A stretch of DNA of 64,000 nt, from positions 1 to 64,000 of the IMG/VR virus record IMGVR_UViG_3300021255_000152; one strand, given 5' to 3'. This DNA comes from a virus. Lineage: Duplodnaviria > Caudoviricetes. The notes beneath the pieces are model-generated. The model was not told the DNA's origin. It did not search any database and worked only from the letters and a program-made list of their open reading frames with translations. Shown here piece after piece: positions 8,713 through 60,467 of this stretch. How positions within the stretch are numbered: the first letter of the stretch is position 1; every line of letters begins with the position of its first letter. A program made the translations under genes and the position numbers.

Positions 8713-9453
8713 ATGGCTAAAACAAGATTAAGTGAAAAAGCCACATATGTCACTCGTGGTTACGGACAAGTTGAACCTAACCATTTATCAGCTCAGAAGA
8801 CAGGTCAGATCTATGCACAGTTACCTGCTGCAGCAAACATTAACATTCTTGAGAATGGTCAGTTTGCTACTTATAACTATGCTGCAGCTGATGGTGGAGC
8901 AGTAGATTTTTCTGGTGCTGGCGAGTGGATGATGGTCTTTAATGAAATTAAGCTTTATCGTGATTTCGAACAGGATTGCGATTTTGCAATGAAGAAAGAA
9001 GATTATGTGGCTCGTGTATATAGCCCAATTGATGGCACTCAGCCATTAACAGAATGGCAGTCTCGTTTCTATGGCCAGTATGCAGGTGTAGATTCTCAGG
9101 GTAATCCTATTCTTAACCCAGAGCGTGTTACAACACCAGCTGACCCATATGAAGTTGATTCTACAGACGATCCATTCAAGACAACTCAGAATTATAAGAC
9201 ACCTAAGTATATGGCAGAAGGAACACGCATGGTTCCTCGTCTCTTTAAGATTAATGTTGGCGATATTTGGACAACAAATACTATTAAAGCAGAACCAGGC
9301 AGCCTCAAAGTTGGTCAGTTCCTTACACCAGATGCAGATGGTTATCTAAAAGTTGGACAGGGTGCAGATGCTCAGCATCCAACAATGGAGATTGTTAAGG
9401 TTTATACAATGCCTGATATGCAACCTGGCGTAAAGGTTATGCGCGTTAAGTAA
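8713..9453 (+). CDS. Putative capsid decoration/cement protein
   Basis: Intact 246-aa ORF between scaffold and MCP; codon bias typical of highly expressed genes; no TGA. Confidence 0.65.
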   Translation: MAKTRLSEKATYVTRGYGQVEPNHLSAQKTGQIYAQLPAAANINILENGQFATYNYAAADGGAVDFSGAGEWMMVFNEIKLYRDFEQDCDFAMKKEDYVARVYSPIDGTQPLTEWQSRFYGQYAGVDSQGNPILNPERVTTPADPYEVDSTDDPFKTTQNYKTPKYMAEGTRMVPRLFKINVGDIWTTNTIKAEPGSLKVGQFLTPDADGYLKVGQGADAQHPTMEIVKVYTMPDMQPGVKVMRVK

Positions 9454-9471
9454 TAGAAAGGAGTAAAGGAC

Positions 9472-10584
9472 ATGTTAGATAAGAAGAATTTCGTACAATT
9501 AGCTAAGATTGTTGCTAAAGCTGATCCTAAGGCTCCTCAGGCGTATAGCTACAACGGCGCTAATTTTAATTATGCTGAACTCAATGAAACACTTCGTAAA
9601 GAGTTCAATGAAATTGCTGGTACATACCAGTTATATCGTGAAAACAAGAATTTAGTATTCTCTATTATTGAAGAAACATTAAATGACGTTCTTCCACAGA
9701 AGGTCATTGAAAACTACGGTCAGTTTGCTGAAGTTAAGACTTTCGCACAGGGCGATAAGCCATTGTTCCGTAGAAAGATTGATGGCACAAATCGTGCTAA
9801 GCAGTTCATTACAAGAGTAGGACTTGCTGGTGATTATGAAGTATTCAAGCTCGCTAAGAGTTCTGAAAGCTTCGAAGTACCAACTAGTGCTATCGGTGGA
9901 GCTGCACAGATCGGATTCGAGGAATTCCTTGATGGTCGTGCTGACTTCGCAGAACTTACAAATATCGTAATGGAAGGTATGGATGACCTCGTTTATGAGG
10001 AAATCGGTAAGGCTCTTGAGGGTGCTATTAATCAGCTTCCAGCTATGAACCGCGTTGTTACAAATACATTCGATCCTGCATCTTTCGATGAACTCGTTCG
10101 TATGGCTGAATCTTATGGTAATGTAACAATCTACTGCACAAACGAATTTGCAGTTAAGATGATTCCACAAGAAGCTTGGAGATACACAGAAGCTATGAAG
10201 GATGAACTTTACAGAACAGGTCGTCTTTCTGGTTATCGTGATAAGAATGTTGTTATTCTTCCAAATGCTTACAAGGATATCATTTCTGGTAAGGAAAAAG
10301 TTATTGATCCTTCTTTCTGCTGGATTATTCCATCTGGCGCAGATACAAAGCCTGTTAAGGTCGCTTTCGAAGGTGACACACTTGTTGATGAGCGTGCTAA
10401 CCGCGACTGGAGTCGTGAAATCCAGGTTTATAAGAAGGTTGGCGTAACTTGCATGATGAACAATGCAATTTGCGTTTATAAGGATACATCTCTTTCTAAG
10501 AATGGTGCATTCAACCTTGCTGATACCGTTCAGAATATTGTTCATGTAGTTGATGATTCTCAATCCGGTAAAGAAGGGGACTAG
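9472..10584 (+). CDS. Major capsid protein
   Basis: 370 aa, strong RBS, synteny, strong codon bias, no TGA. Confidence 0.85.
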   Translation: MLDKKNFVQLAKIVAKADPKAPQAYSYNGANFNYAELNETLRKEFNEIAGTYQLYRENKNLVFSIIEETLNDVLPQKVIENYGQFAEVKTFAQGDKPLFRRKIDGTNRAKQFITRVGLAGDYEVFKLAKSSESFEVPTSAIGGAAQIGFEEFLDGRADFAELTNIVMEGMDDLVYEEIGKALEGAINQLPAMNRVVTNTFDPASFDELVRMAESYGNVTIYCTNEFAVKMIPQEAWRYTEAMKDELYRTGRLSGYRDKNVVILPNAYKDIISGKEKVIDPSFCWIIPSGADTKPVKVAFEGDTLVDERANRDWSREIQVYKKVGVTCMMNNAICVYKDTSLSKNGAFNLADTVQNIVHVVDDSQSGKEGD

Positions 10585-10979
10585 TGACGGCAACCGCCAG
10601 TAAGTTGGCCACTCTTCCATCTTGGGACGCACATTATGCAGACATGCAGACCAATAATGGGGCGGTTGGAGTCGAACAAAGTGGTAACACTGTTGCGCTT
10701 AGCTTTGACGATGATGCATTAGTTACATTCCCATCTTCAAATGCGGCACAGGGTGAGCATAAATGGGTTGGTCTCGATATTGCTACTAACTTAGACAGTA
10801 TCGTAGGTGCAACTTGGAATGGTTCTGAGTTAACTCAGGCAGATGCGGATGAAGCAGCAGGCGTAGGTCTTGCGGCAGGTCACATCGTATTCTGGATTAA
10901 AGCAGACGCATTACCTGTTTCTGTAACTATTGGAGCAGAAGGTAAAGAGGCTGCAACATTGACATTCCAAAAAGCTTAA
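10584..10979 (+). CDS. Small beta-rich virion protein, possibly a frameshift extension of the MCP
   Basis: GTG overlaps the MCP stop (TAGTG) in the -1 frame; followed by a terminator. Confidence 0.7.
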   Translation: MTATASKLATLPSWDAHYADMQTNNGAVGVEQSGNTVALSFDDDALVTFPSSNAAQGEHKWVGLDIATNLDSIVGATWNGSELTQADADEAAGVGLAAGHIVFWIKADALPVSVTIGAEGKEAATLTFQKA

Positions 10980-10994
10980 TTAAATACTTTAAAG

Positions 10995-11034
10995 AATAAG
11001 GGGAGTAGGGGTAAATCCCCTCTCCCCTTATTTT
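10995..11034 (+). terminator. Intrinsic terminator after the capsid genes
   Basis: AATAAGGGGAG-T-AGGGG / CCCCT-CTCCCCTTATT hairpin followed by T residues. Confidence 0.8.
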
Positions 11035-11066
11035 CATTAATAAGAGAAAAAGGAGATAATATTAAA

Positions 11067-11636
11067 ATGGCAAAGAATGATAGTGTAATTGTAGCAAATC
11101 GTACTGCGGCAAAAGTTGTTTATAATATTCCAGATAGGGGTATTCGTAGAGAATTGGCGCCAGGACAGTCAATTAGAACTACAAAAGATGAAATTGAAGC
11201 ATTATCTTATGTAAGTGGAGGCTTAGATCTCATTAGAAACCACCTCTTGGTAAAAGATGAAGAGATTCTCAATGATTTAAATATCGACAGAGAACCTGAA
11301 TATTATATGAATGCTAATGATGTTCTTAATCTTTTAAAGAATGGAACTCTTGATGAATTCCTTGATGCATTAGATTTTGCTCCAGAAGGTGTCATTACGT
11401 TAATTAAAGATCTTAGTGTTGAGCTTCCTTTGAATGACTATGCAAAACGTCAGGCTCTTAAGGAAAAGACTGGCTTTAATGTAGATGCGGCTATTGCTAA
11501 TTATCAAGCAAATAATGCTCCAGAAACAGATGAACCAGCAGCTCCTGTACAGCCTAAGAGAGTTCGTAGAACACAGCCTAAGACTAAAAAGGCGGATGCT
11601 ACACCTGTAAAAGTAATTAAAAAGACTGCTGAATAA
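11067..11636 (+). CDS. Hypothetical head-module protein
   Basis: 189-aa ORF with AGGAG RBS and a Lys/Pro-rich tail. Confidence 0.75.
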   Translation: MAKNDSVIVANRTAAKVVYNIPDRGIRRELAPGQSIRTTKDEIEALSYVSGGLDLIRNHLLVKDEEILNDLNIDREPEYYMNANDVLNLLKNGTLDEFLDALDFAPEGVITLIKDLSVELPLNDYAKRQALKEKTGFNVDAAIANYQANNAPETDEPAAPVQPKRVRRTQPKTKKADATPVKVIKKTAE

Positions 11637-11656
11637 TATTGAAGGAGGAGATATCC

Positions 11657-12247
11657 ATGGGAACTCAGTTCACAGAAGTATATAATCGCTTCCTCAGCAT
11701 GATTACGGATGATATGTACATGGAATTAACTCCAGAAGACACAGCAAGGGATCTTAGATCCCTTTTAATTAACGCTATTCCTGGATTTGAATTTCCTCGT
11801 AAAAATCTAATGGATTATTCAATAGAAACTCTTGTTATCAGAGAAGATACTGTTCAAGAAACAGATTTTATTATTGGTGTTGTTTGGGATACTCCAGATG
11901 GACCAGAAGATGAAAACATTCCTGATGTTTATATTGAGCGTTCTCATTTTACAGATGATTTAACTCCAGAAGAACAAAATATTCTTGCACTTCTTATGAT
12001 GTGCGGTTGAGTTCAAAGACAAGTTACTTCTATTGAAAATACCCGTATGAAATATAGCGGTTCAGATTTTAAAATGACCTCACAAGCCAATCATTTAGCC
12101 AAATTACTAAGTCTATTGTCTGAATGTCAAAGACAATCTTTTCACATGCAACGTTTATATAAACGCAGACGTTTAGATGATGTCGGTAAGTTTGAATCTA
12201 ATTGAGATGTTTTTAGAAATGGCGTTTATGGCGACTACAAAGTATAA
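11657..12247 (+). CDS. Putative head-tail adaptor, 196 aa; 2 TGA=Trp
   Basis: AGGAGG RBS; read-through at 12008 gives ...LLMMCGWVQRQ...DFKMTSQANHL...; synteny. Confidence 0.65.
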
Positions 12248-12530
12248 TTTTGATATACCTGATGAAAGTTGTCAATCTGACGTAAATCGACTAACAAATC
12301 AATTATGAAAGCTTATCCCAATGCGTGAAAATGAAGAGAATTGATTGGAGCAGTTAAATACCGTAATTATAGAGATTGCGGGACTTGGAGAAATTTTTAA
12401 TAAAAGTGATAAATTCTTAATTCTTTTAAGCAAGTTAGAAGGATTGAGAGTCACCGAAGTTGCTTTCTCTACATATAGAAAAACTGTGTTTGAATCAATT
12501 TCCTTATTAAGAGAGGTTATGTATGGCTAG
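12219..12530 (+). CDS. Hypothetical protein (~100 aa; start at 12219 or 12228); 2 TGA=Trp
   Basis: ...RLTNQLWKLIPMRENEENWLEQL... extends the 12345 track ORF upstream. Confidence 0.65.
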
Positions 12531-13509
12531 TTCTCAATATCATGGAATTAGTATGATGGCGAAAAGGCTCGATTGGCGAGGAGGTTTTCCTCAACAAGAT
12601 AGAATGATCAAAGATAAAAGATGAACTTTGGATCATGCAGTAAAATATTCTTATCAAGCAGCAAAGATAAGACATACAGATTCTGAAAATTTAACCGAAG
12701 CGCCTTCTTTAATAAATCCAGATAAAACAAAACAAAATTATGATGATAAGATTGTTTCTGTTGGATATGAATATGGATTTCAACCAGGAGACGTTTTTGA
12801 TTGGCTGAATACGGGTACAAAGTGAATTATTTATCTTCAAGATTTAACAGAATTGGCTTATTTTAGAGGAGAAATAAGACGATGCAATTATCAGGTTTCT
12901 TGAAAGGGTGAAGATGGTACAATATATACACAACATCTTGCGGTTCGAGGACCTGTTGAAACAAAAATTAATTTTATTCAAAAGAATGGTATTAGTGTAG
13001 ATGAACCTAACCATTCTTTAGATATTTTAATGACAAAAACCCCAGAAGCATTACAATATTTTCAACGTTATGCAAAATTTTATTTAAAAGGCATTGAACG
13101 TGCTGATAAGAAAATTTGCTGAAGAGTTGAAGCCGTTGATACTATTAGTATGCCTGGCATTATTCAAGTTGTTGCTGTAGAATACTATGCTAATGAAACT
13201 AAGGATGATATTGTTGATGGAGTAGCTAATGGTTTAGTATTAGATCCAGTAGATCCAAATGAAGAAGATGGAATTAATGATATCATTGAAGGTCCTACTT
13301 TTATTAAACCTAGAGTTGAGTATAGTTATTTCTATAGAAAGAGACAGGAATCTGCGCGTTGGTCTCTTGTAACGAAAAACAGTCCTGCGGAGGTTGTTAA
13401 GATTGATGGTCATAGAATGACCGTTAGATGGAACAGTTCTTATCATGGACAGTTTGAAATTGCTTGTAATGGTTACAAGAAAACTATCGTGGTAGAATCT
13501 TTATTTTAA
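12523..13509 (+). CDS. Putative head-closure/neck protein, 328 aa; 4 TGA=Trp
   Basis: GAGG RBS; joins the 12628 and 13150 fragments in frame; GDVFDW...KWIIY; synteny. Confidence 0.65.
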
Positions 13510-13526
13510 GGGAGAAAATGGAGTGT

Positions 13527-14111
13527 ATGATAATTAATAATTATGAGATACCGCATTCTTCTTTTATGGCTGTAGATAAAGATTTACAGCTTATAACAGA
13601 ATGAATGATGAAAAATAAAAACTTATGTAAAATGCTTTATTATACAGATAGAGATGCATTAGATAGACCAGCTCTTTCTAGTGCGCAAAAAGCTGATTTA
13701 TTTGGTAAGCAAATAAAGATAGTGCCTAAACTATATGTAGATGGGAGTGTTTTGGCATATGTAATTATTTCAATGGATAATTTCACAAGAAGTGCGAATC
13801 CGGAATTTCGTGATAATATAATATCTTTTGATATTGTCTGTCATTTTGATCAATGGCAGTTGAAAGACTTCCAGTTGCGTCCATACCGAATTGCCGCAGA
13901 GATTGATTCAATGTTTGATAATAAGCGACTAACGGGTATAGGTGAATTACATTTTGTGGGAGCGAATCAAATTATTTTAAGCGATGAATTTGCAGGACTC
14001 ACTCTTATGTATGAAGCTATTCATGGCGGAGAGGATAAAAAGAAGACGCCTAATCCTATTGATCAAAATCAATTTGAAAAAGATTTCGATGAATTATTTA
14101 ATGATAGATAA
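13527..14111 (+). CDS. Putative tail completion/terminator protein; 1 TGA=Trp
   Basis: Upstream extension of the 13605 ORF (alternative start at 13518); position in the neck module. Confidence 0.6.
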
Positions 14112-14114
14112 TTT

Positions 14115-14837
14115 ATGAAAGATATTGACCTTGCATTATTTACTGGGGTTGATATTCCTATACCAGAATGTCAATTAATCATTCATCAACCTACGATTAA
14201 AGAGATTTCAATGGTTGGCGAACGAGAATTTTTGGCTGGTATAAGAGTATTAGCCATCAGTAAAGAAGACTTGGATAAGGGCGGAAATAATTTATCAAAT
14301 ACTCCTAATTTTCAAATATTTATGACAATAATGGAGGCCGAAGAAGCAAAAGATACCAAGGAGGCTGTTAGAGAAGCTTTATCTTTAATAATTCCTAACT
14401 GTAAGGTAAATTTTACTCCTCGGTCATTATTGTTAAATTATAATGGAACAAATACCATTATAGATGAAGGAAATTTTGAATATTTCCAAGATGTTTTACG
14501 GCAAGTATTTTGTTTGAAGAAAAAAGAGGATGATTATAATCCAGTAAATGCTCAAGCTGCAAAAATTGCAGAAAAAATTAAAAAAGGCAAAGCAAGAGTA
14601 GCTCATTTAAAAGGAGAAGATGTTGGTAGTATTTATGCTAGATACATCTCAGCTTTGGCTATTGGATTACAAATACCTTTACAAGATTTATTAAATTGTA
14701 CTATATATCAAATTCAAGATCTTTTGGAAAGATTTTCTCTTTGAACAAATTGAGACATTGATATTAAGTCTAGACTTGCTGGGGCTGAGGCCAAAGGCAA
14801 GCCTGAAGACTGAATGAGAAATATCCATAAAGATTAA
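14115..14837 (+). CDS. Hypothetical tail-module protein (chaperone-like), 240 aa; 3 TGA=Trp near the C-terminus
   Basis: ...FSLWTNWDIDIKSRLAGAE...PEDWMRNIHKD-TAA closes the gap to the major tail gene RBS. Confidence 0.7.
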
Positions 14838-14858
14838 TTTAGAAGGAGGAAAAAGCCC

Positions 14859-15923
14859 ATGAAATATGGTGTTCGTGACGTCGTTGACGTTGTACTAAGA
14901 GCTAAGGGAACAATGGATCTTGGAAACAAACGTTTCTACAAGAATGAACCTGTATTATATTTCGATACGCTTACTACTTCCACATTAGAGGGTGCTTCCA
15001 CAACTGTATATGCGCAGGGTGGTAAAGGTAACGCTCGTTTAATGGCTTGGGAAGGTGAACGTACTGTTACTTTCACAATGGAAGATGCTTTGATCTCACC
15101 AGAAAGCCTTTCTATTCTTACTGGTGCAGGTTTAATTGAAGCTTCTGAAGCTGCTCCTATTTATCAGCACATTGTTGAAACTACAGATGATTATACTCTT
15201 GGCGATGGCAGTTTAACAGTTAATGTTGAAAAACTACCTTTCTTACCAAAGCCACCAGTTGCTGATAGCGATCCAGCAATTCCAGTAGAGGAAGAGAACT
15301 ATGCTTGCGTAATGTTTACTAAGGATGGCGAAATCGTTTCTGAACCTTATATCGTTAGCCAGCAAGAAGCAAATGGAATTAAGCAGACAACAGATGGCAA
15401 GTATATTATTGTTGTTAATGAACATACTTGCAACTTCGGTAAGAGATGCCATGACTCTGGTGAGGTATATACACCAGCAGACCTTGCTCTTGATGAAAGC
15501 AAAGCAAATGGTGTATTAGTAGATTACTACACACCTGTTAAGAAGGGTGCTAAGCAGATTGAAATCGATGCTGAAAAGTTCGCTGGTTCTTACTACCTTG
15601 AAGGTTCTACTCTTTGGAGAGATACTAATGGTGTAGATCACCCAGCAGAATTCATTATCCCTAACTGCAAGATTCAGTCCGCATTTACATTTACAATGGC
15701 TGCAACAGGCGATCCATCTACATTTACATTCACAATGGATGCATTCCCTGATTACACTCGTTTTGACAGAACACACAAAGTATTCGCTGTTATTCAGCTT
15801 ATGGAATCCCAGACAGCTGCTTCTGATGCCGAAAATGATCTCCATCGTGGTAGAACATGGCATGCAGACGGTGTTGCATCTCGTGTATATGAAGATGAGG
15901 GAATTGATAACCACGATAACTAA
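14859..15923 (+). CDS. Major tail (tube) protein
   Basis: 354 aa; GGKGN...TFTMEDAL and IPNCKIQSAFTFTMAATGDPSTFTF segments; strong RBS and codon bias; no TGA. Confidence 0.8.
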   Translation: MKYGVRDVVDVVLRAKGTMDLGNKRFYKNEPVLYFDTLTTSTLEGASTTVYAQGGKGNARLMAWEGERTVTFTMEDALISPESLSILTGAGLIEASEAAPIYQHIVETTDDYTLGDGSLTVNVEKLPFLPKPPVADSDPAIPVEEENYACVMFTKDGEIVSEPYIVSQQEANGIKQTTDGKYIIVVNEHTCNFGKRCHDSGEVYTPADLALDESKANGVLVDYYTPVKKGAKQIEIDAEKFAGSYYLEGSTLWRDTNGVDHPAEFIIPNCKIQSAFTFTMAATGDPSTFTFTMDAFPDYTRFDRTHKVFAVIQLMESQTAASDAENDLHRGRTWHADGVASRVYEDEGIDNHDN

Positions 15924-15940
15924 TAGCGGAGGTATAAACT

Positions 15941-16141
15941 ATGTTTTCTCGCTCTAAGAAAAAGAGCAGTTCTGTTAAGACAGTAAAAAAGCAGGCTGCT
16001 GTTTCAATCATTAAACCTGGGCAGGGAACTAAGGTAGAAGAGCCACCACTAGATTTATCTATGGCTAAAATTTCTATTATTAAACCTGAAGGTGGTTTAA
16101 TGGTTCAAGTTGATGAAACTGAAGGAGAGGAAGACGAATAG
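15941..16141 (+). CDS. Small hypothetical protein (66 aa)
   Basis: GGAGG RBS; basic N-terminus, duplicated SIIKP, acidic C-terminus. Confidence 0.6.
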   Translation: MFSRSKKKSSSVKTVKKQAAVSIIKPGQGTKVEEPPLDLSMAKISIIKPEGGLMVQVDETEGEEDE

Positions 16142-16156
16142 TCTTCCTCTTTTTTT
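16126..16156 (+). terminator. Intrinsic terminator
   Basis: AGAGGAAGAC-GAATA-GTCTTCCTCT plus T tract. Confidence 0.8.
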
Positions 16157-16177
16157 GTTTATTGAGGTGATAAAAGT

Positions 16178-17536
16178 ATGACAACTTTATTTCAATATGT
16201 GGTTGATAGCAAACTTTCTAAACACAGAGCATCTTTTTGAAATGATGTTGATGGAGACAGATACGGTGCTTTAAATAGTGCTTGGCCCCCTAAGCCAGAA
16301 GCAAAAGCTATTCATGACTATCAAATGCAGAAAATTTTTGAATTTAATAAAATAGCTATAGATAAGTCTCAGGCTGCTTATGGCCGTTTTTATGAATTAG
16401 CTGATTTATTATTAGCTAATAGAACAGCAGATCTTCCACAATTATATGAAGATGAACAAAATAAGAAAATTTCAGAAAGTATTGAAAATGTTTTAGATAC
16501 TATTGGCGAAATGCGCTCTATAAAACGACAATCTTGAGAAATTATGGATGCAAGAACTAGACATGACTTAATGTTGTCTCAATTAGTGTCTTTATCTTCT
16601 CAATTAGACACTTTAAGAGATACTTTAAAAATTAAATCTGTCGCCTATGAAGAAAATGTAGAGGCTATAGATAGGATTATTAAAAGCTTAAGTTCTACAA
16701 AAACTTTACAGACAAAGGCATTTGGTGAGTTTTGAAAAAATATTAACCAAATTCAAGGAGATTTGTTAGAAGAATTGGGTACAGGATGATTTAATGAAAG
16801 AATTCCTGCAGATTTAAATGTAAGAATGATTACAACCGGAAATGTTTCATTAAACACTTCTAGAAGCAATCGTCATGGAGGACAGATTATTCAAGATATG
16901 TTAGCTATAGATATTTCTGGGAATAATTTAGAAGATATAAAAATATCTTATAGCTTAAAAGGACAGAAACAACCTGAAATCAGTCTAGGAGAATTCATTA
17001 GAATGCTAGATAATCATAAATCAGATCAAGGTAAAATTGTTATTGACGATGAAGGATATGATACTTTATTAAAATTATCTAAATTAAATGTACAAGCAAA
17101 ATCTGGAAAAAATCAGTTACCTTGAAATGTAAATGAAAGTACAAGTGTAAGAATTAGTGAATATTCCGCAGAGCCTGCGGGCGGTTATTTATCAGCACTT
17201 GAAACATTTCAATTACTTTATCAATTAGACAATGAAAGTCCTACAGATAAATGGGTAAAAAATTCAGATCCTGATAAATATTATCAAGCTTTAGCAAATT
17301 ATGGATTAGCGACTGTTTTATATAAAGTAATGCATATTGATAATTATGAAGGAAACCAATTAATGATAACTAGACGAGGTTTTGTAACTTTCTCTCAAAG
17401 AATTAATGAAATATTTAGAAAACATCCTAACGGATATATTTCATTGAACGGACAAGTTTTTTCTAATGGTAGATTAAATTCATTAACAACACCTTATCGA
17501 GTAAGTATTCCTACATGAATTTTGCTTGCTTCATAA
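16178..17536 (+). CDS. Uncharacterised 452-aa protein, possible PD-(D/E)XK-like fold; 6 TGA=Trp
   Basis: GAGGTG RBS; four track fragments join in one frame to TAA at 17534-17536. Confidence 0.75.
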
Positions 17537-17554
17537 AAGGTTTTTTGCTATAAT
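17526..17554 (+). promoter_or_regulatory. Internal sigma-A-type promoter
   Basis: TTGCTT-17 nt-TATAAT with an extended -10 TG, upstream of the 17581 gene. Confidence 0.7.
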
Positions 17555-17580
17555 ATAGGAGAAAAAGGAGGTTTGGTTAT

Positions 17581-18105
17581 ATGGCGAAACCAACATTTAG
17601 CAAATTAAAGCTTATCGCAAATGTAGATAAAAAAGAAATTACCTGGGAAGACCAAGTAATTGAGGTTAAACAATATTTATCTATTGAAGATAAGTTAAAA
17701 CTTATTACAGAAGTATTAAATGCGTCAGCAGATGAAAATAGGTTTTATAATAAAGGTAAAATTGATATGTATTTTAAGATATACATAACTTATTTTTACA
17801 CAAATATTAGTTTTACTGATAAGCAAAAAGAAGAAATTATTAAAACCTATGATGCGCTCTATTCTTCTGGACTTTGGGATTGTATAAAGAAAGCGATTCC
17901 AGAAGAAGAATTAAATTATGTATATGACTTGGTAATTGATGCAGTAGAACAAATTTATAATTATCAAAATTCTATTTATGGAATTTTAGATGCAATTTCT
18001 ACTGATTATGAGGGATTGAATTTAGATATTCAAGAGTTATCTAAAAAACTAGGCGATAAAGAAGGAGTAAAATTCCTTGATCAAGTATTAACCAAGATGG
18101 GTTAA
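17581..18105 (+). CDS. Putative tail assembly chaperone
   Basis: 174 aa, AGGAGG RBS, immediately before the tape measure gene; no TGA. Confidence 0.6.
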   Translation: MAKPTFSKLKLIANVDKKEITWEDQVIEVKQYLSIEDKLKLITEVLNASADENRFYNKGKIDMYFKIYITYFYTNISFTDKQKEEIIKTYDALYSSGLWDCIKKAIPEEELNYVYDLVIDAVEQIYNYQNSIYGILDAISTDYEGLNLDIQELSKKLGDKEGVKFLDQVLTKMG

Positions 18106-18145
18106 TTTAGGTTAATTTGATTTAACATATTAAGAAGAATGTATG

Positions 18146-18180
18146 TACCCGTGAGGATTTTTCTTCACGGGTATTTTTTT
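18146..18180 (+). terminator. Intrinsic terminator directly before the tape measure gene
   Basis: TACCCGTGAGGA/TCTTCACGGGTA hairpin plus T7. Confidence 0.8.
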
Positions 18181-18205
18181 ATATAGGAGAGAAAGGAGCT
18201 AAAAT

Positions 18206-46995: not shown

Positions 46996-46996
46996 T

Positions 46997-47030: not shown

Positions 47031-47031
47031 A

Positions 47032-47077: not shown

Positions 47078-47096
47078 AGTAAAGGAGGAACGGACA

Positions 47097-47840
47097 GTGG
47101 TAAGCTATGTTAAGTTTATGCGATGTACGCAAGCATATTTTAACAATTTAACAAAAAAAGATGTAGATACCCTATATTTCGTAGCGAATCCTACGTCTGC
47201 GGATAATGGTTTCCTCTATCTCGGTAATAGATTAATTTCAGGAACTTCAGAAAAAGAATCAAGCACTACCAATGGATATATTTCTATAAATGAGGTAAAA
47301 GATATTCTCATTAAAGAAAATCTGGCGGATAATGATATTCTTTTATATAACGAAGGAACAAAGAAGTGAGAAAATCATGCGCTCCAAGATTTGTTGGTTT
47401 ATTCTTCAATGAAAGGAGCGACAGAAACCAAAGACGGTATTGCGGGATTAGTTCCAGTTCCTATTGCAGGCGATCAGCTTAAATTTTTAAGTGGCGATGG
47501 AACATGGAAAGAAATAAATACCTATGATGCGGAATTACACGCCGTAGTTAAAACCTTAGTTGCTTATGATCCAGACATGTCTGTTAGAGAAATTGCAGAT
47601 GAAGTTGTCATGGACGTACGCTCTAGAGTAGGTAGTTTAGAAAAAATCATTCAAGGTAGTGGTTCTAGTACAGACTTGGGTCTTTCAGCCCGTGTATCAG
47701 CAATAGAAAATACAATAGGTGATTTTCAACCCGTGTCTCCAAACTACCTAGATATTGGAGAAGCAATTAGTTATTTTGACACTTCGATAACTGAACTTAA
47801 TGATCGCTTAAGATGACATACATTATCGGAAAACTTATAA
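47097..47840 (+). CDS. Tail fibre-associated protein, 247 aa; 2 TGA=Trp
   Basis: AGGAGG RBS with GTG start; GAT...G..GLVP.P.AG...KFLSGDGTW fibre motif. Confidence 0.75.
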
Positions 47841-47858
47841 TCGAAAGGAGATGTGATT

Positions 47859-49670: not shown

Positions 49671-49675
49671 TTAGA

Positions 49676-49721
49676 GGACAGAAATCATTAAACAAGAGTG
49701 AATATCTTTCAAAATAGTTAG
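49676..49721 (+). promoter_or_regulatory. Candidate phage late promoter motif
   Basis: GGACA-N10-A-N17-TCA-N7-TAG in an intergenic region. Confidence 0.55.
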
Positions 49722-49733
49722 AAGATATTAAGG

Positions 49734-49769
49734 TAGGAGAGAAGAAATATCTTCTCTCCTATTTTTTTT
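49734..49769 (+). terminator. Terminator/attenuator hairpin in the leader of the giant gene
   Basis: TAGGAGAGAAGA/TCTTCTCTCCTA plus T8. Confidence 0.8.
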
Positions 49770-49796
49770 ATATGAAAAAGGAGAAAGGAGAAAAGT

Positions 49797-52700: not shown

Positions 52701-55700
52701 TTGAAGATTGACTTTATGGAATCTTCTGGAACTTATAACATGGGTTTTGCTAACCTTGTTAAGAATGCTTATACTCACCATCCTTTATATGATTATTATC
52801 AAAAGGGTGCTATTATGAAAGCTGATACTGAATATAAAGTATCTACTGAATATAAAGAAGGCACAACTTACTGGTATAAGAACCATAAAGGAAATATGAA
52901 AAACACTGTCGATGATGAATTAAAGATTCAGACAGCAGAAGACTATGCTATGGGTCCTGTTGCTTTTGCGCAGTCTATTGGACAAACAAAGGTTTTAACA
53001 GATCCAGCAGTTGAAGGTTATAATACTTGGTATGAAGCTACAACTGTATATAGTACAGCTCCTACTCCAGATTACCTTGATGATTACAGAACATCTGTAC
53101 AAGGTTTCCCTGTATTAACATTCCATCGTAAGACAGATGCAAACGGTAACGTTACAGGTATCAGCTATATCGGAAGATATAACATGTTACTTGATAAAGG
53201 TTCTGATGAAGCATATGGTTTTAAACCAATTGATGAAGTTTATCAGAAATTCGTTACAAAGAAGAATAAACCTGTTAAAGTTAGTAAGGTTGCAGAGTGC
53301 TGAGAAGCTGAGAACAACTCTCGTGGTTTCTGCTCATTCCGTGACGCTTCTACTAATAGAACAGATGATAAGTTCTTCGACACAGGTGCATTAACTGTAC
53401 ATGGCGCACCTATTGTTGCTGACTACTGGGAATATCGTTATCATAGTTGCGCTGATTCATTAGATATCCTTTATGAATTAGATGCAAATATTTCTGACGA
53501 AGATTCCATCGCTACAGTAGCAGATGAACTTGGAGTAGATATCCAGGATTCTACAGCAATTCCATCTCCAGATTCAAATTATAAGGGAACTTATACTCAG
53601 GGTATGAAGAATGCTGGCGATGCTTTATTAAAGACTTACTCTAACTGGGAAAGAGCAGTAAGATGGGTTTATAGTACAGACCAAGATGCTGTTCCTTCTA
53701 TGGGTGTTTATTCTAAAGTAGATTTAGGTTTAGAAGCATATGTGCCAAATCTTTATTACATCTTAAATAGTGATAGTGAATATGAATTAGATACTAGCGA
53801 AACATATGATCCACTTCTCACATATTATAAAGCATCTGGAGAAGAATATACTCCTATTAAGCTCTGCGCAGATAGTAGTTTGATTTATCAGCCAAATACT
53901 TACTACATTCCTTCTACATTAAAAGAAGGTGAGTATGTATTAGACCCTGAAACTGCATTTAATCCAAACTATACATATTACAACCTTACTGCAAATGAAG
54001 CAGAAAGTGGCGCAGTTGCACTTCCAGAGCCAGTTACATATAATGGACACGTATATTCATACGATACAAAAGAATATAGAAATGCTAAATTCACAAACGA
54101 TTTAAGCAAACACTTTAATCTTGAGTATCTCGTTACTTACTTCGTAATGACTGAAGTCTTCGAGTGCTATGACTCTCGTGGTAAGAACGCGATGTTCGCT
54201 TCTTGGGGTCCTCAGGAAGAAGGCGGAGATTATATTTGGTATCCAATATTCTACGATATTGATACTCAGTTAGGTATTAATAACACAGGTATTCCTTCTT
54301 TCGAATACTACGTAGATGCAACTGAAAATGGTACTTTCTCTACTAACGATAGCTTGCTATGGAATAACTTATATAAGAACTTCCGTGGTTTAATTATCCA
54401 AAAGTATAGACAGTTAAGAGGTACTAACTCCACATATCAGAGCTTAAAGTACGCTCCATTACAGACAGTAGATAGAATTGAAAGCTGGTATCTTGCAGAT
54501 CCAGAAGCTACTGGTAGTATGGTAATGAGAGGTGAAAAACCTTTAATCGCTCTTAACCTTGATGAATACTATAAGTACATTACTATTACTAATCCATTAA
54601 TGGGTTATCAGGATAGAAATGGCGGAACTGGTATTGATAATGGTACTTACTTCTACGCACTTCAGGGTGATAGAAGCTTATCAAGACAGCAGTTCTTAAT
54701 TAACCGTTTCAATTACATTGACTCTTGGTTAAATCAGGGTAACTACGAACGTGGTGGTACAAACATTATTCGTGGTCGTATCGCCGCAAACAGTCCTTCA
54801 AATACATCCGATAAATGGATTGAAGGTGAAACTATTAACACTGAACCAACACTTAATACAAATGTTCCTTACTGGAAAGATGCTGCCGAAACTCAAAAGA
54901 CACACCTTTTTGATGGTGAATATTGGATTAACATGGAGCCTGTTAGAAACTCTTATGTTACTGTTGGTACAGATACAGCAAACTTCCCATCTTTGAAATA
55001 TACAAACCTTGATGGTCCAGTTAAGTTCGTAACTCCAGACTTAGAGAACGGTGTTCGTAAGAGTGGTGGATATCACGAACAGCTCTACTATATCTATGGA
55101 CTTGACCAAATGAAGAGTCTTGGCGATATGAGTAGATTATATTGGACTGAATTTAATATTGAAGGTTCTGCTACAAAGATGACTGACTTATTACTTGGTT
55201 ATGACGGCTTGGATGAAGAAGGCAATTTCTATCTTAACGATAGAATCAATATGTACGGTATTCATGCAAGCAGCTCCGCAAGTGATAAGGGAGGTATGCC
55301 ACTCTTAAAGAGAGTAAATCTTTCCTATGTTAGATTCAATGATGAAGCTCCTACATATAATTTCACAAGCTGTGAAAAACTTGAAGACTTTAGAGCTATT
55401 GGTTCTAACATTACAAATGTTTCCTTCGCAAATGGTGTTGCTTTAAATACACTCTATCTCCCAGAGACAATCAAGAGATTAGACTTAACTGAAGCAACAA
55501 AACTTAATAACATTGTAACACAGTACATTCCTCGTAATGATGCTGCAGGCATTGATGTTACACGCGGATTATATATTCCTAATTTAACAGATAAGGCCGA
55601 TAACGAAGCTACTTCTCAAATTGAAACAATTAGTCTCATTGGAGATTGCTTAGGTTATGATAGTTATAAGTTATTAAGAAAATACTATAACGCACGTATG

Positions 55701-57641
55701 GGTGCGGCAATGTCTTATATTACAATGACAGATGTAAGATGGACTCCATATAAGCAATTAGATGAAGGAACTCCTTACAATGTTGATGATAATAATGCTC
55801 ATTTATATTGGGTAGATGATGGTCACTTCGGACTTAAAGAATATGTTCATGAGAACTATGATACTTGAACATTATTAATTAAGAATGGAGAACTTTACAG
55901 ACTTAATACTCAATTAGATGGCTCTACTATTAAATCTACAGATTTATTGATGCAGTTAAAGAACGCAAGTAATTTCAGAAGTGCTGCTGCTACAAGCACA
56001 CCAGTTCCTGTTATTACTGGTATCATCTACGTTGATAATGATACTCCTATCAACGAAAGAGATATTGAAGCTAACCTAGTTTCTGCTTACCCAGACTTGA
56101 AATTCTTCTTCAAGCAGGTTGAACAGGTTCCTGCTGCTAAATATATTATCCTCAATGATGATGGTACTTACGATACTCTCGTAAGAAGAACATTAGCCGC
56201 AAATGAGACATTCTTCCCTAATCCTCTAACTCTCGTTTCTTCTAGAGAATTAGATAGATATGAAACTCGCTTAAAGTACGACTTCTATGGTTGGGGTACA
56301 GTTCCACTAAGTCCTGCTGGAGTAGAAAACCTCAGAGACGATAACTGGTTTAAAGAAGAAAAAGGTAATCTTGTTGTAACAACAGATAACCCTGAATCTC
56401 CTGCCTTAACTTCCGACATGTGGTATAATAATTGAGATTCACTTTCTATTCAAGAAGGTGTAAATGATTACGTATTCTATGCTGTCTTTGGTGTGCATAA
56501 GTACATCATGACATTTAAGAATGGCGATAATACTACAGATGCTGGTATCTTGAAGATCGAAGCTGAAAGTCCAGTTCCATATCCAAAGACAATTGTTCCT
56601 TCTAAATCTGAAAAAGATTTACCTTTCGATCAGACATATTACTTCACAGGTATATGGAGATTAGAAAATGGAACAGAGTTGAAGGATGGAGTATTTAAGT
56701 CTCAAAGAAATCTTACTTTCTATCCTGAGTTTGCAACAAGAGACGTTCATTCCGCTCCAACAAACTTAGACTACTTTGAATTTAAGACATACGAATACTT
56801 GGATGGTAGTCCTAACTTTAGTACAAACTTTGCGATTCCTCAGTATGTAAGTGGTTCAACATATAACGTAAATGGTGTTTCAATTGGTATTAAACCTGGA
56901 GTTACTCTAAGTGGAAAGGTTACACTTCCTACTTATGATCCAAATGGAAGACCTGTTGTAGCATTTGATGCAAGCTGAAGTATTCCGGGCCTTACTCAGA
57001 AGCCATTACCTCAAGGCTGTGTAGGCGGACAAAACATTACACATATTTTCTGGTATCATACAGATGGTAAGGATCCAATGCTCAGAATTATTCCTGAATA
57101 CACATTTGCTGGTTCAACAGATGACAAAATGAACTTGCAGTATTTTGAATTCCCATCTTCATTACGTGTAGTTAATCACTATGCATTCTATCGTGCTCAA
57201 TCATTAACTGATATTAATCTTAGAGATGCTAACAATCTTTTATGGATTGGTAATAACGCATTTAGATTATCCACAGGTAGTACCGAAGAAGAAATTTTAA
57301 ATATGGGAGATATTTACATCCCAAGCTCTGTTGCTTCCATTGGTGCGCAAGCATTTGCCGCAATTAATGGTAACTATGGAACTGTTCAATTTGGTACTGC
57401 TCCTACTGGTTCTCGCTTATGTAGATTAGGAGAGTTAGATTTTACTGCTCAAGATGTAACAGTAACAATATTCTCTTCTATTGGAAACATTGGCGTATTT
57501 AGATTCTATGCTTCTTCAACCGCCCAAAAGAATGCTATGATGAAATTTGTTAATGATACTGGTGATGCTTTCCAGACATTCTCAATGTTTGAAAGAGCCG
57601 GAACAAAAGAGTATCTTGATGCAGGAAATCTTTCAAGTTAA
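49797..57641 (+). CDS. Giant virion-associated protein, ~2614 aa: LamG/ConA-like, CotH-kinase-like and leucine-rich repeat (BspA/LRR_5-like) regions; 4 TGA=Trp
   Basis: Five fragments in one frame; motifs SIYLNG...FKIRIYN, QGTSS..YPRRNYK, KIDFMESSG, DSRGKN, WYPIFYDIDT, IPSSVASIGAQAF. Confidence 0.8.
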
Positions 57642-57654
57642 AGGAGAATAAAAT

Positions 57655-57870
57655 ATGATTAAGACACCAATTTATACTTATTTAGGTACAAATGGAACTC
57701 TTACTACTCCAATTCATCTTGAGGGTATTTATGCTGTCGTAAAGTATCAGCTTGATGCAGAAGGAGATAAGTTCTTAACAAAGGATAATAAATCTTATGT
57801 TAAGACAGTTCTTTGTCCTGAAAGTGAAGTTGCCCTTTGGAAAGAAGTTTCCAAAAAGGCCAAAATATAA
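57655..57870 (+). CDS. Small hypothetical protein
   Basis: 71 aa, AAGGAG RBS. Confidence 0.7.
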   Translation: MIKTPIYTYLGTNGTLTTPIHLEGIYAVVKYQLDAEGDKFLTKDNKSYVKTVLCPESEVALWKEVSKKAKI

Positions 57871-57903
57871 CAATAAAACTTAATATAAAATTAAGTATAA
57901 TAG
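57858..57903 (+). promoter_or_regulatory. Candidate phage late promoter motif
   Basis: GGCCA-N10-A-N17-TTA-N7-TAG. Confidence 0.5.
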
Positions 57904-57906
57904 TTA

Positions 57907-57940
57907 AGGGGAAGGGAAACCCCCTTCCCCTATTTTTTTT
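57907..57940 (+). terminator. Terminator-like hairpin
   Basis: AGGGGAAGGG/CCCTTCCCCT plus T8. Confidence 0.8.
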
Positions 57941-57962
57941 CAAAAGTTAGGAGGAAACATAA

Positions 57963-60467
57963 ATGATCACTTATATTGACAGTGAAAATAAACAAGACTA
58001 TACCGTGTTGTTTAATAAAGCCTCTGCAAAACTAGGATTAATTCCAATTATAAAAGAAACTCTTAATCCTACTACTCTTAAAACAGAAATCACTTATCAA
58101 AAGAGTGTTTTCAAGAATGAGAAGTGGGAAGTTGTTGATTGCGAAGTCAAGAAAGACGAGCAGGGTAATCCAGTAAGAGATTCTGAAGGAAATTTAATTC
58201 AGCTCGAAGTTGATGCCGATGGTAATCTCTTAGAGCTTGAAAGAAATGGTGCCGGTGAAATTGTACTTGACACACAGGGAAATCCTACTGTTTTAAGAAC
58301 AATTCGTGGTATCGCAAGCTTAAACGAATATTTCCAACACATTGTTGAATTAGCTGGTTTAGCTATTGGCGAAGGCCGTTCAGGTTCTGATCCATATTTC
58401 TTAAGAGTTCCTCTTGATGAACCTTTCTTTGAAATTAATGCAAATACTCGTGGAATTACAGTTCCAGGAGAATTGAGTCAGGTAGGTATCATAGGCGATA
58501 AACTTGCTGAAGTAGTATTCTTCAGAATTGATAGATACTTTGATGCCGTTGATTTAAACACAAGAGATATTTATATTGAGTGGGAACTTCCTGACGGAAC
58601 AAAGGGTATCTCAAGAGATTATCTTCGTGATGTTCAATCCGAAAAAGATAAGATTATCTTCGGTTGGGTAATTGGTGACGAATTAACTCAGCAAGTTGGT
58701 ACAATCCGCTTCGCTGTTAGATTTGTTGAATGGCTTGATAAGAATTATAAAGTTAATGAAAGTACAGGCGAAAGAGAACAGATTGATGAAGCTATTACTG
58801 GAACAGAGTTACTTTATAGCTTTAGCTCTTTACCTGCAACAATTTCTGTTTCTGATAGCTTACATTATTCTTTATTTGAAGATGATGAAGCTTTAGAGAT
58901 TTATTCCAGACAGACAGAACAGAACGTTGGTACAATTTCTCTCTATCTTGAACCATCTCTTCCAGATAGCACAGATCAGACAGCTCCTATTCCAGCAGAT
59001 ACACCTAGATTCATTAGAGACTTGAATAAGACTTACTATCCTACTGCTACTGCCGCTTCCGCAGATAAGAGTTTTGACTTCATTATTAATTTAATTGATG
59101 AAAAGCTTGATCTTGATGTTGAAGCAGTTGCTGAAGATGGTGGCGCAATTAGCTACATCTTCGGTAGAAGAGAACACTCTGAAGATGAAGGTACAGGTGT
59201 TAAGCCTACTGGAACAGTTGGTCTTGTAGCGAAGACTTCTTTTGTTGCTTGGACAAAGCAGGCGATTTTAGCAGGTGCTGTAGATCAGCATGGCAAGCTT
59301 GATAGAACATTCTACAAGAAGTTAGAAAATCAGACTTATGAAGTTGTAAGTCAGGTTTATATTGAAGATAGTGATGATGACACTGTTTTCTATGAAAAGG
59401 TTGCTAAGACAGTTATTGACAAACCTGGTCATTACTATGCTATTGCAACAAATAGAGCTGGTGGTAAGAAACCTACTAAGGCATATAGTTCTACATTCTA
59501 TGTTCCTTGGGCAGCTAAACCTACTGCAACAAAGCAAATGCCTTCTAGATTCATTCCTAAAGAAGATGTTTATACTATCGCTGCAAACCCAGAAATTCCT
59601 GAATCTAACGTAGGTGAATATCAGAATCAAACTAACGTTCGTGCAACTAAGACAGCTGTACATAATAATGTTACAGTTACACTTGCACCAGAGGTTAGCG
59701 TAGATAATGATATCAATGTTCCAAACTTAACATATCAGTGGTATAGAAACCCTAATAACCACTTACAGAGTTTATCTACATTCCATCCAGAAGCTTACAC
59801 AAGACCTACTGATGGAGCTAATAAAGTAACAGATGATGTTTGGGCAGCAACAGAAGCAGCTCTTATTACTAGAGATGGTTGGACACCTATTGAGGGCGCA
59901 ACTAATGCAACATATACTACAAATGAACCTGGATGCTATGCAGTAAAGATCACTAACTCTTATAATAATAGTAGCAAAGCTACTAACTTATTAGATGCTG
60001 GCGTATGCCGTGTTACTAATATGCCTAGTGTTCCTACTGTAGATTGGGATAAGTTCATTTCTGATGCAACAGATCATGGTACTATTGATACTGAAATTGG
60101 TATCAGCCTCAATAAGCATATTTCTGAAAGAGCAGATGGTGAAGAACCAACTCCTATTGATTACGATGAGATTAAGTATATCTGGCACAAGATTACTCTT
60201 GCTAAAGATATGCCTGAAGGCTCTGAAGAAAATGCATATCTCTATGATACAGAATATGCTACAGATGCCGACATTGAGCGCCCACAGGGAATCTTAACAT
60301 TCAATGATGGCCTTACTGATAAGATTCCTTTTGGTTTTAAGAAAACTGGAAACTACTATCTTGAACTTCAGATTACATTAAATGGTGCAACACGTATCAT
60401 TAACTATGGACAGAAGGAAGATACACCAAACGGTGGAATAGTAATTGGTATTACTAGCGGAAACTAA
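57963..60467 (+). CDS. Baseplate upper (BppU-N-like) protein with Ig-like C-terminal domains
   Basis: 834 aa; GDKLAEVVFFRIDRYFD..DL...GTIRFAVRF; LTYQWY...IEGATNATY...GCYAV Ig-like motif; no TGA. Confidence 0.7.
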   Translation: MITYIDSENKQDYTVLFNKASAKLGLIPIIKETLNPTTLKTEITYQKSVFKNEKWEVVDCEVKKDEQGNPVRDSEGNLIQLEVDADGNLLELERNGAGEIVLDTQGNPTVLRTIRGIASLNEYFQHIVELAGLAIGEGRSGSDPYFLRVPLDEPFFEINANTRGITVPGELSQVGIIGDKLAEVVFFRIDRYFDAVDLNTRDIYIEWELPDGTKGISRDYLRDVQSEKDKIIFGWVIGDELTQQVGTIRFAVRFVEWLDKNYKVNESTGEREQIDEAITGTELLYSFSSLPATISVSDSLHYSLFEDDEALEIYSRQTEQNVGTISLYLEPSLPDSTDQTAPIPADTPRFIRDLNKTYYPTATAASADKSFDFIINLIDEKLDLDVEAVAEDGGAISYIFGRREHSEDEGTGVKPTGTVGLVAKTSFVAWTKQAILAGAVDQHGKLDRTFYKKLENQTYEVVSQVYIEDSDDDTVFYEKVAKTVIDKPGHYYAIATNRAGGKKPTKAYSSTFYVPWAAKPTATKQMPSRFIPKEDVYTIAANPEIPESNVGEYQNQTNVRATKTAVHNNVTVTLAPEVSVDNDINVPNLTYQWYRNPNNHLQSLSTFHPEAYTRPTDGANKVTDDVWAATEAALITRDGWTPIEGATNATYTTNEPGCYAVKITNSYNNSSKATNLLDAGVCRVTNMPSVPTVDWDKFISDATDHGTIDTEIGISLNKHISERADGEEPTPIDYDEIKYIWHKITLAKDMPEGSEENAYLYDTEYATDADIERPQGILTFNDGLTDKIPFGFKKTGNYYLELQITLNGATRIINYGQKEDTPNGGIVIGITSGN

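Follow-up and report, generated by a model that had tools for sequence, protein, structure and literature searches.

The first 64 kb of IMG/VR record IMGVR_UViG_3300021255_000152, one viral contig of 138,028 bp (GC content 34%), carry the structural genes of a tailed phage (Caudoviricetes) that reads the stop codon TGA as Trp, and we analysed how this reassigned codon is distributed among the genes of this stretch (hereafter the window). The main finding is that three genes, those for the major capsid protein, a probable head decoration protein and the tail tube (major tail) protein, together called the major genes below, contain no TGA, and that this avoidance is apparently held by purifying selection. 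Comparisons of sequences demonstrate the pattern itself, its replication in relatives, its independence from base composition and, for a giant gene further downstream, an incongruent phylogeny. We think it likely that three layers together explain TGA usage in this phage, namely an early/late split, selection linked to expression and a mosaic history.

Absence of TGA from three virion genes

When translated with table 4, the window holds 128 TGA and 158 TGG codons, and their usage is strongly heterogeneous over the 26 Trp-containing genes (chi-square test with 25 degrees of freedom, X2=91.9, p=1.4e-9; a value not reached in any of 20,000 permutations). Counts per gene, written TGA/TGG here and below, are collected in Table 1. 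Pooling the five TGA-free genes gives 0/24, against 81/37 for the tape measure gene and the three distal-tail/baseplate-region genes (Fisher p=6e-11). The original prediction, made from the letters of the window and a list of its open reading frames (ORFs), had claimed gene-specific usage of TGA versus TGG, which is real, and every one of its hand counts was reproduced exactly. Its gene labels fared less evenly, since capsid, tail tube and tape measure are borne out by fold, clusters and PHROG matches, respectively, while "decoration" and "baseplate" are labels by position only. The model of the capsid protein (mean predicted local distance difference test score, pLDDT, 70.6, from an 18-sequence alignment) has 238 Foldseek matches in the PDB at E≤1e-3, and the 50 matches listed are all HK97-type capsids or encapsulins; on this model, it is predicted to be an HK97-fold capsid protein. 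The tube protein resembles the YomU_Tube clusters of the Atlas (score 0.98), and its gene lies where the tube gene of a siphophage is expected. The decoration function is probable from the position of the gene directly upstream of the capsid gene, and the sequence of the protein, judged by eye, is unlike the helical, charge-rich scaffold type. PDB sequence searches returned nothing for the capsid profile, the decoration protein or the tube protein, and Pfam gave no family for the decoration, capsid, tube, baseplate, 2006-aa or 834-aa proteins.

The same three genes are all but exempt throughout a family of related phages, under two different reassignments. Relatives were surveyed by their capsid or 2614-aa genes (loci L019-L075 and L082-L152); the search with the capsid protein gave 75 viral contigs, whose code state was taken from ORF density under three codes. 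The family holds all three: a TGA-recoded clade, with capsids at least 82% identical to that of the window, many TAG-recoded lineages, in which TAG aligns most often with Gln where the column has a majority residue, and a few standard-code lineages. At least four code changes are needed on the capsid tree, where 19 of the 20 code-4 rows stand together and the 20th, L018, lies outside; the group joining the window to the 18 other code-4 rows has a support of 86 in the Shimodaira-Hasegawa-like approximate likelihood ratio test (SH-aLRT), the next inner group has 95, and the whole clade is sister to a mixed group of TAG-recoded and standard-code phages. Dereplication at 95% capsid-gene identity leaves 15 TGA-recoded and 24 TAG-recoded lineages. 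In all 15 of the former, the major genes are free of TGA (0/124 Trp codons in total, versus 253/509 in neighbouring late genes; sign test 6e-5), and in all 24 of the latter they are poor in TAG (11/757 Gln codons, versus 1105/3262 in other late genes; sign test 1e-7). Broken down by family, TGA makes up 0/45 Trp codons for decoration, 0/46 for capsid and 0/33 for tube, and TAG makes up 3/306, 3/294 and 5/157 Gln codons, respectively. CAG, the sole Gln codon one mutation away from TAG, represents 54-60% of CAA+CAG in the major genes, which therefore have more, not fewer, chances to gain TAG. The two recodings also agree beyond the major genes: over 21 families, TAG share and TGA share are correlated (rho=0.83, p=2.7e-6), and the coefficient is still 0.74 when the three major genes are left out. 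Two further families, encoding the 834-aa and the 605-aa protein, fall between the extremes under either reassignment. The former has 2/43 TGA when pooled over code-4 lineages and a TAG share of 0.11, which means that avoidance is conserved, and the latter, with 1/16 and 0.10, is consistently poor in the recoded codon. The idea that abundant virion proteins avoid TGA by selection, on which the original prediction centred, is thus upheld in 15/15 TGA-recoded lineages, and likewise for TAG in 24/24, beyond any bias in base composition at third codon positions.

That last qualification matters because the simplest alternative is that TGA share just follows local GC content at third positions (GC3) or the third-position A/G bias. 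Within the window, TGA share does fall with GC3 (rho=-0.60) and rise with the A-share of the remaining two-fold codons that end in a purine (rho=0.73, p=2e-5), and each small TGA-free gene taken singly is marginal against its own A-share (p=0.03-0.17). As a control, we aligned 13-19 distinct sequences from the TGA-recoded clade for each of the decoration, capsid and tube genes. The 121 conserved Lys/Glu/Gln columns comprise 14 that are all-G, 89 that are polymorphic and 18 that are all-A, so that 107 of them carry A-ending codons in some or all relatives, whereas no sequence has anything but TGG at the nine conserved Trp columns (Fisher p=3.7e-8). Glu favours GAA in the major genes (85%) while Lys and Gln favour the G-ending codon, which makes this a bias of particular codons and not an overall shift towards G at the third position. 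In addition, the 2006-, 2614- and 834-aa genes depart from expectation after correction for their own A-share (p=9e-10, 3e-17 and 5e-6, respectively), and avoidance of TAG, which involves a C/T change at the first position, cannot be a third-position effect. A composition-only reading, which the column control largely refutes, thus appears barely credible to us; the correlation with GC3 that had been proposed as a check exists in part, yet GC3 does not explain the avoidance in the major genes. The contrast with ordinary late genes is equally sharp, since 30 of their 34 conserved Trp columns contain TGA in at least one sequence, compared to 0/9 in the major genes (Fisher 1.3e-6). Among these 30 columns, 26 are polymorphic and four are fixed for TGA. 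Most late-gene Trp columns being polymorphic, and even the nearest strain (97-99% nucleotide identity) showing 15 TGG/TGA differences, none of them in the major genes, the two codons must interconvert fast. Four partly-Trp columns of the major genes, which are probably new Trp codons, contain TGG only. Taken together, these alignments argue that TGA is kept out of the decoration, capsid and tube genes by purifying selection.

Probable import of giant genes and apparent tolerance of TGA

Poverty in TGA has a different origin in the 2614-aa gene, which the original prediction had listed for its low TGA count; the relatives show that this is not a trait of the gene family. This gene is a family core gene, present at full length in 76 viral contigs. 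In the four TGA-recoded relatives available whole, its orthologues count 17/14, 6/21, 12/19 and 20/16, compared to 4/37 here (Fisher 5e-5), and in TAG-recoded lineages the family has a TAG share of 0.25 among its Gln codons, on a par with other late genes, so that there is no family-level avoidance. These four relatives have capsids about 90% identical to that of the window, but their 2614-aa orthologues are only 31-40% identical. In contrast, the allele of the window shares 65% identity with its counterparts in contigs G006 and G007 (1/36 and 0/20), and G007 is weakly recoded, with a capsid 70% identical to that of the window, 7/15 in its tape measure gene and 2/4 in its terminase gene. A tree built from the N-terminal 1000 residues places the code-4 alleles in three separate places, with the window grouping with G006/G007 at 100% support, and a single origin of the code-4 alleles is rejected (difference in log-likelihood 617; approximately unbiased test p=4e-133). 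Because the allele groups with G006/G007, is incongruent with the capsid tree and is TGA-poor only in this lineage, it appears to have arrived by recombination from a weakly recoded lineage, whose codon habit it keeps. The 2006-aa gene, TGA-poor as well although absent from the original list, shows a comparable picture: orthologues in the four code-4 relatives, 30-34% identical, have 11/3, 14/13, 15/6 and 16/10, versus 5/21 here (Fisher 9e-5). Its poverty in TGA is thus lineage-specific and probably due to an import like that of the 2614-aa gene. Compared with the nearest strain, at 98% nucleotide identity, the 2614-aa gene already differs at one Trp codon and the 2006-aa gene at four, with changes going either way. 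GC skew at window positions 42000-60000, which coincide with the phylogenetically incongruent giant-gene module, is lower (0.02-0.10) than at 2-42 kb (0.11-0.26).

Could all TGA-poor late genes then be recent imports from standard-code or weakly recoded phages? Such a purely historical account is true of the 2614-aa gene and plausible for the 2006-aa gene, in a family that is a mosaic of standard-code, TAG-recoded and TGA-recoded lineages, and recent acquisition had been named from the outset as a competing cause. For the decoration, capsid and tube genes it does not hold. The capsid tree joins the window to the other code-4 phages with the support given above, the three genes are TGA-free in 15/15 lineages, and their Lys/Glu/Gln synonymous sites are saturated with change, which means that there has been ample time for TGA to appear. 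Moreover, their partly-Trp columns are all TGG, and 24 further lineages show avoidance of TAG in these families. We therefore regard history as the sole cause as highly improbable, and the combination of selection on the major genes with import of the giant genes as the better account.

At the other end of the range, TGA-rich genes could reflect a throttle, with positive selection favouring TGA wherever a protein is needed in few copies (tape measure, baseplate, lysis), so as to limit or delay its output. This would agree with a published proposal that lysis genes and some tail genes favour the recoded codon in Agate and crAss-like phages (bioRxiv 10.1101/2021.08.26.457843), and a few genes are indeed very TGA-rich, such as 14115-14837 (3/0; family 26/7), 16178-17536 (6/2) and a tail-fibre-like gene at genome positions 65916-67061 (8/0). 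However, TGA share in the tape measure and baseplate genes is no higher than the A-share of their other purine-ending codon pairs. The tape measure gene has a TGA share of 0.74 and an A-share of 0.83 for its own two-fold purine-ending codons (p=0.14), and the tape measure and the three baseplate-region genes taken together span 0.60-0.75 versus 0.75-0.83 (p=0.14, 0.14, 0.024 and 0.43, the third being significantly lower). Over the remaining aligned head-to-tail late genes, a pool that excludes tape measure and baseplate, TGA accounts for 50% at conserved Trp columns, compared to 72-80% A for Lys/Glu/Gln. Polymorphic Trp columns outnumber those fixed for TGA (26 vs 4). Finally, the endolysin gene (genome 78891-81368) is TGA-poor, with 3/11 and 0/2 in the next gene (142 aa), while relatives have 2/2, 11/9 and 6/7; lysis genes are not richer in the recoded codon than other late genes here. 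A throttle is thus very unlikely. In the tape measure and baseplate genes, the use of TGA appears close to neutral and would represent tolerance, perhaps at a slight general cost; of the original suggestion that low-copy proteins "tolerate or exploit" TGA, the first half stands and the second falls, TGA share being at or below A-share.

Genetic code, expression and a proposed mechanism

Several lines of evidence bear on the code and on the phage itself, for which we consider it probable, as part of the overall explanation, that it is a siphophage of about 138 kb infecting a standard-code Firmicute in the ruminant gut. Near-identical DNA is present in bovine and goat gut metagenomes, and CheckV estimates the 138-kb record to be 79% complete. 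TGA is best read as Trp because ORF density is higher with table 4 (127 ORFs, 93% coding, 0.93) than with table 11 (187 shorter ORFs, 81% coding, 0.81), because a tRNA(UCA) is present and because early genes are near TGA-free. In alignment columns with TGA, W is the majority residue of the other sequences in 13/24. ARAGORN finds 24 tRNA genes in the record, one of them with anticodon TCA, which reads as UCA. This tRNA is closest to the separate tRNA-Trp(CCA) that the phage also carries (72% identity, with three other phage tRNAs at 71%), with which it has D, anticodon and T arms in common, and its charging with Trp is putative. ARAGORN gives no tRNA(TCA) for G002 (161 kb) and G003 (176 kb; both among loci L162-L179), although these relatives are clearly TGA-recoded, while G001 has one; G003 contains a 27-nt partial match to the suppressor tRNA of the window phage at 96977-97003. 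No match to a release factor (PF00472) or a Trp-tRNA synthetase (TrpRS; PF00579) was found in the 138-kb, 79% complete record; both are accessory code-change genes of some clades only and do not define the class. Genes are arranged in a plus-strand block (1-83 kb) with terminase, portal, capsid, tail, giant proteins, tail fibres and endolysin, and a minus-strand block (84.7-137.7 kb) with replication genes such as type II topoisomerase. The 57 early genes of the latter have 6 TGA versus 201 TGG, with one TGA in a gene with a GIY-YIG domain, one in the topoisomerase II gene and four in an ORF without known function. A standard-code host, as suggested in the original prediction, fits because early genes are near TGA-free, the phage has its own tRNA(UCA), cultured relatives by capsid infect Enterococcus, Clostridioides and Bacillus, and ribosome-binding sites are of the AGGAGG type. 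The nearest named phages by capsid protein are Phass-1 (47% identity over 94% of the length) and large siphophages of Enterococcus (38% for phage EF1), Clostridioides and Bacillus.

Codon usage outside Trp provides a link to expression. In a principal component analysis of relative synonymous codon usage over 88 genes, Trp codons excluded, the first component (PC1) explains 22.5% of the variance and ranks capsid first, tube second and decoration fifth, with one early gene and a late gene of 217 aa between the last two. It opposes CGT, CTT, CAG, AAG, TTC and GGT to TTA, CAA, AGA and ATA, loadings that we take to be typical of translational selection in Firmicutes. In late genes, TGA share falls along this axis (rho=-0.68, p=3e-6); a comparison with codon adaptation had been proposed as a check in the original prediction. 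Separately, contigs from four metatranscriptome runs in three studies cover parts of positions 3001-23000; in all three studies they end at 16,021-16,130, beside the hairpin 3' of the tube gene, and none lies on 16.3-17.7 kb. Such gaps prove nothing and contigs cannot rank genes, and these data were not used as evidence.

The mechanism we propose would operate as follows. Late in infection, the phage would read TGA as Trp by means of its own tRNA(UCA), and early genes would be near TGA-free because the unmodified machinery of the host must translate them. In most late genes, TGG and TGA would interconvert freely and drift toward an AT-biased equilibrium. From the virion genes with the heaviest expression (decoration-like, capsid and tube), purifying selection would remove every TGA, and the same purge would act less strictly on the genes for the 834-aa Ig-like protein and the 605-aa protein. 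We infer that the cause is incomplete suppression, through either release-factor competition or a limiting suppressor tRNA, and that the cost, consisting of truncated product and stalled ribosomes, would grow with expression. The 2614-aa gene, and probably the 2006-aa gene, would have recombined in from weakly recoded relatives and would not yet have accumulated TGA. The original prediction had invoked competition with release factor 2 (RF2) of the host; since the same families avoid TAG, which is read by RF1, the cost would not be RF2-specific but general to suppressed stop codons.

A number of observations weigh against this mechanism. A tape measure gene with 26 TGA codons implies that suppression is efficient. 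Codon context bears no mark of pressure from release factors: over 55 late genes, the base that follows in-frame TGA does not differ significantly from that after TGG (p=0.08), and C is rarer, opposite to what is expected of weak terminators; neither is there any bias in the relative position of TGA within these genes (p=0.09). The 131-aa ORF, which is TGA-free in its family (0/15 in four code-4 lineages), has a few TAG-recoded homologues that do use TAG (3/14 Gln codons), and the avoidance therefore does not appear to be general across the two codes. Nothing marks the 834-aa or the 605-aa protein as abundant, and yet both genes avoid the recoded codon. The model of the 834-aa protein predicts tandem Ig/FN3-like beta-sandwiches, conserved over residues 117-360 and variable in the C-terminal part, as in a fibre or adhesin, and a fold search gave only generic tandem Ig/FN3 matches with low template-modelling (TM) scores. 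Heavy expression of the major virion genes is deduced from codon adaptation. No close donor-like allele has turned up for the 2006-aa gene. Lastly, a published survey identified the capsid protein in only 57% of table-15 genomes when these were read with table 11 (PMC11210395), and this figure means that avoidance in the capsid gene is not universal in recoded phages.

Time rather than amount of synthesis could also be at stake, if capsid, decoration and tube proteins were made before the suppressor tRNA accumulates and their genes were kept readable in the standard code for this reason. This is the same logic as that of the published late-gene gating model (bioRxiv 10.1101/2021.08.26.457843). 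The three genes are fully translatable by table 11, and the suppressor tRNA gene lies at the far end of the plus-strand block, beyond the lysis genes. Nevertheless, the layout of the region fits this explanation poorly. The decoration gene starts 19 nt after gene 7399-8694, which has one TGA, and the portal gene, with two, is one gene further upstream; TGA-bearing genes (11639-14837) also separate the capsid gene from the tube gene. There is no case for separate promoters for the major genes, as there is no excess of promoter-like sites (69 versus 76 expected from shuffles). In addition, assembly needs the TGA-containing portal, connector and tape measure proteins, and the strongest general codon adaptation being found in the major genes points to amount rather than time. 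We thus view timing as unlikely and favour a cost that depends on expression.

Table 1. Features of the window and of the suppressor tRNA, with TGA/TGG counts
Feature	Position in window	Strand	Evidence and remarks	TGA/TGG
Large terminase	3577-5406	+	PHROG matches; Trp codons of relatives flip freely, 0/6 to 5/0	2/3
Portal protein	5777-7387	+	PHROG 2739, E=2e-80; relatives 0/3 to 3/0	2/2
Probable head decoration protein	8713-9453	+	Position directly upstream of capsid gene	0/3
Major capsid protein, predicted HK97 fold	9472-10584	+	Model and Foldseek	0/3
131-aa ORF	10584-10979	+	Overlaps stop codon of capsid gene	0/4
Tail tube (major tail) protein	14859-15923	+	YomU_Tube clusters, PHROG 2729	0/3
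Terminator-like hairpin, 15-bp stem and T run	16121-16155	+	Just 3' of tube gene	
Tape measure protein	18206-26368	+	PHROG tape-measure matches	26/9
Distal-tail/baseplate-region gene, 1603 aa	26480-31291	+	Position only	13/6
Distal-tail/baseplate-region gene, 1818 aa	31716-37172	+	Position only	24/16
Distal-tail/baseplate-region gene, 1125 aa	37190-40567	+	Position only	18/6
2006-aa protein	40975-46995	+		5/21
605-aa protein	47853-49670	+		1/4
2614-aa protein	49797-57641	+	BspA-type leucine-rich repeats; CotH match below Pfam cut-off	4/37
834-aa protein	57963-60467	+	Tandem Ig/FN3-like model	0/11
tRNA(UCA)	genome 82481-82552	+	ARAGORN	

Other features deserve mention. Between the terminator-like hairpin and the tape measure gene lies the TGA-rich 452-aa gene at 16178-17536, which has no PHROG or Pfam match, is absent from G001-G004 and has an orthologue with 7/0 in G007. 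A pattern search for relatives of the 1603-aa baseplate-region gene gave one locus only. Within the first 19 kb, the sequence closest to a sigma-70-like promoter (11/12, extended TG) is at window positions 1162-1190, at the start of a sigma-factor-like/HNH gene (1158-2318) whose true start may thus be further downstream. Beyond the window, a minus-strand island at genome positions 72119-77836, comprising two radical S-adenosylmethionine (radical-SAM) proteins, a peptidase-like protein and unknown ORFs, has 28 TGA/6 TGG, and its orthologues were not found in G001-G004. Three minus-strand genes in or at the edge of the early block contain TGA: a RuvC-like resolvase gene at the edge (genome 83933-84436, 4/2; relatives 4/1 three times), a gene for a protein with a GIY-YIG homing-endonuclease domain (105540-106526, 1/3; one relative 4/2) and a gene for a conserved 209-aa protein (116405-117034, 4/2; relatives 5/2, 3/1 and 6/0). 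ARAGORN also predicts a tmRNA-like gene (tag ANFVKNTIAKIKNFFAPSNQLALAL) on the minus strand at genome positions 132745-133054, inside an array of 23 tRNA genes in the region 124.7-138 kb. Among the relatives, standard-code lineages include L030, L070, L074 and L080-L087, and L018, G006 and G007 are weakly TGA-recoded intermediates. A single TAG-recoded lineage is an exception to avoidance, with in-frame TAG in its capsid gene (L029:10001-11077; 2/11 Gln-type codons).

Comparison with known recoded phages

Our finding refines what is known of phage recoding. Recoded phages, the early/late split and per-family tests of codon preference are already published, as is a description of the phage family (PMC10607447). 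The closest parallel is with the Agate, Jade and Sapphire clades of Borges et al., which are TGA-recoded gut phages of standard-code hosts (bioRxiv 10.1101/2021.08.26.457843). As in those phages, structural and late genes contain in-frame TGA for Trp and replication genes keep to the standard code; a suppressor tRNA is present, GC is low, TGA is almost unused as a stop and genome size is similar (Agate being ~127 kb). Borges et al. already scored the preference for TGA versus TGG per family, stressing families that prefer the recoded codon (lysis, tail protein, intron endonuclease) and integrases that avoid it. Unlike in their pattern, the endolysin gene here is TGA-poor, and neither a release factor nor a TrpRS was found in the 138-kb record. 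Avoidance in capsid, decoration and tube genes was not found reported in the sections of that preprint that were consulted. In a non-exhaustive literature search, limited to the accessible parts of the sources, we did not find stated the exemption of these three genes, the convergence of TAG and TGA profiles or the TGA-poor imported alleles. On the composite claim that reassignment of TAG to Gln and of TGA to Trp converge on one per-gene profile, that suppression is incomplete enough for selection to act and that three top virion proteins are exempt, we find ourselves evenly divided.

By its capsid and core genes, the window phage would be a relative of the phAss-1 family of large Firmicute siphophages. 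PhAss-1 (OQ749652, 136 kb; proposed Phassvirus group) is TAG-recoded, with three tRNA-Sup-CTA genes, and its description lists interrupted ORFs without a per-gene analysis of avoidance (PMC10607447). The capsid of the window, at the identity to Phass-1 given above, shows 38% identity to its counterparts in Enterococcus phages EF1, EF5, H1 and VRE9, and the window phage, phAss-1 and EF1-like phages have in common that they are large Firmicute siphophages from gut samples with many tRNA genes. The difference is that phAss-1 reassigns TAG to Gln, while the window phage reassigns TGA to Trp. A family with three codes and weakly recoded intermediates would be a natural system in which to measure the spread of a new codon within a genome.

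Recoding is usually understood as a timer: late and lysis genes stay blocked for as long as the suppressor tRNA is missing. If our reading is correct, the density of a reassigned codon would be a gene-specific trait set by the demand for expression and not only by an early/late gate. Exemption of the same genes under two reassignments points to a real translational cost, that is, a selective price that models for the origin of recoding would have to include. There may also be a practical consequence, since capsid and tube genes look intact with table 11 while their neighbours are shattered, which may mislead code prediction and marker-gene surveys.

The pattern resembles classical translational selection, in which the worst-read codon is purged from the most highly expressed genes while other codons drift with mutation bias, and for which codon deoptimisation of the T7 capsid gene provides a phage case (PMC5592923). 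Unlike in classical codon bias, the disfavoured codon is a reassigned stop, failure to read it would be termination, and avoidance is absolute (0/124) rather than graded. The giant genes recall another known process, the amelioration of horizontally acquired genes, a concept reportedly due to Lawrence and Ochman. As in amelioration, the putatively imported 2614-aa allele keeps the codon habit of its source, with few TGA, but it is a reassigned codon that adjusts here rather than GC content, and weakly recoded genomes together with freshly imported TGA-poor alleles could represent sampled intermediates of codon capture.

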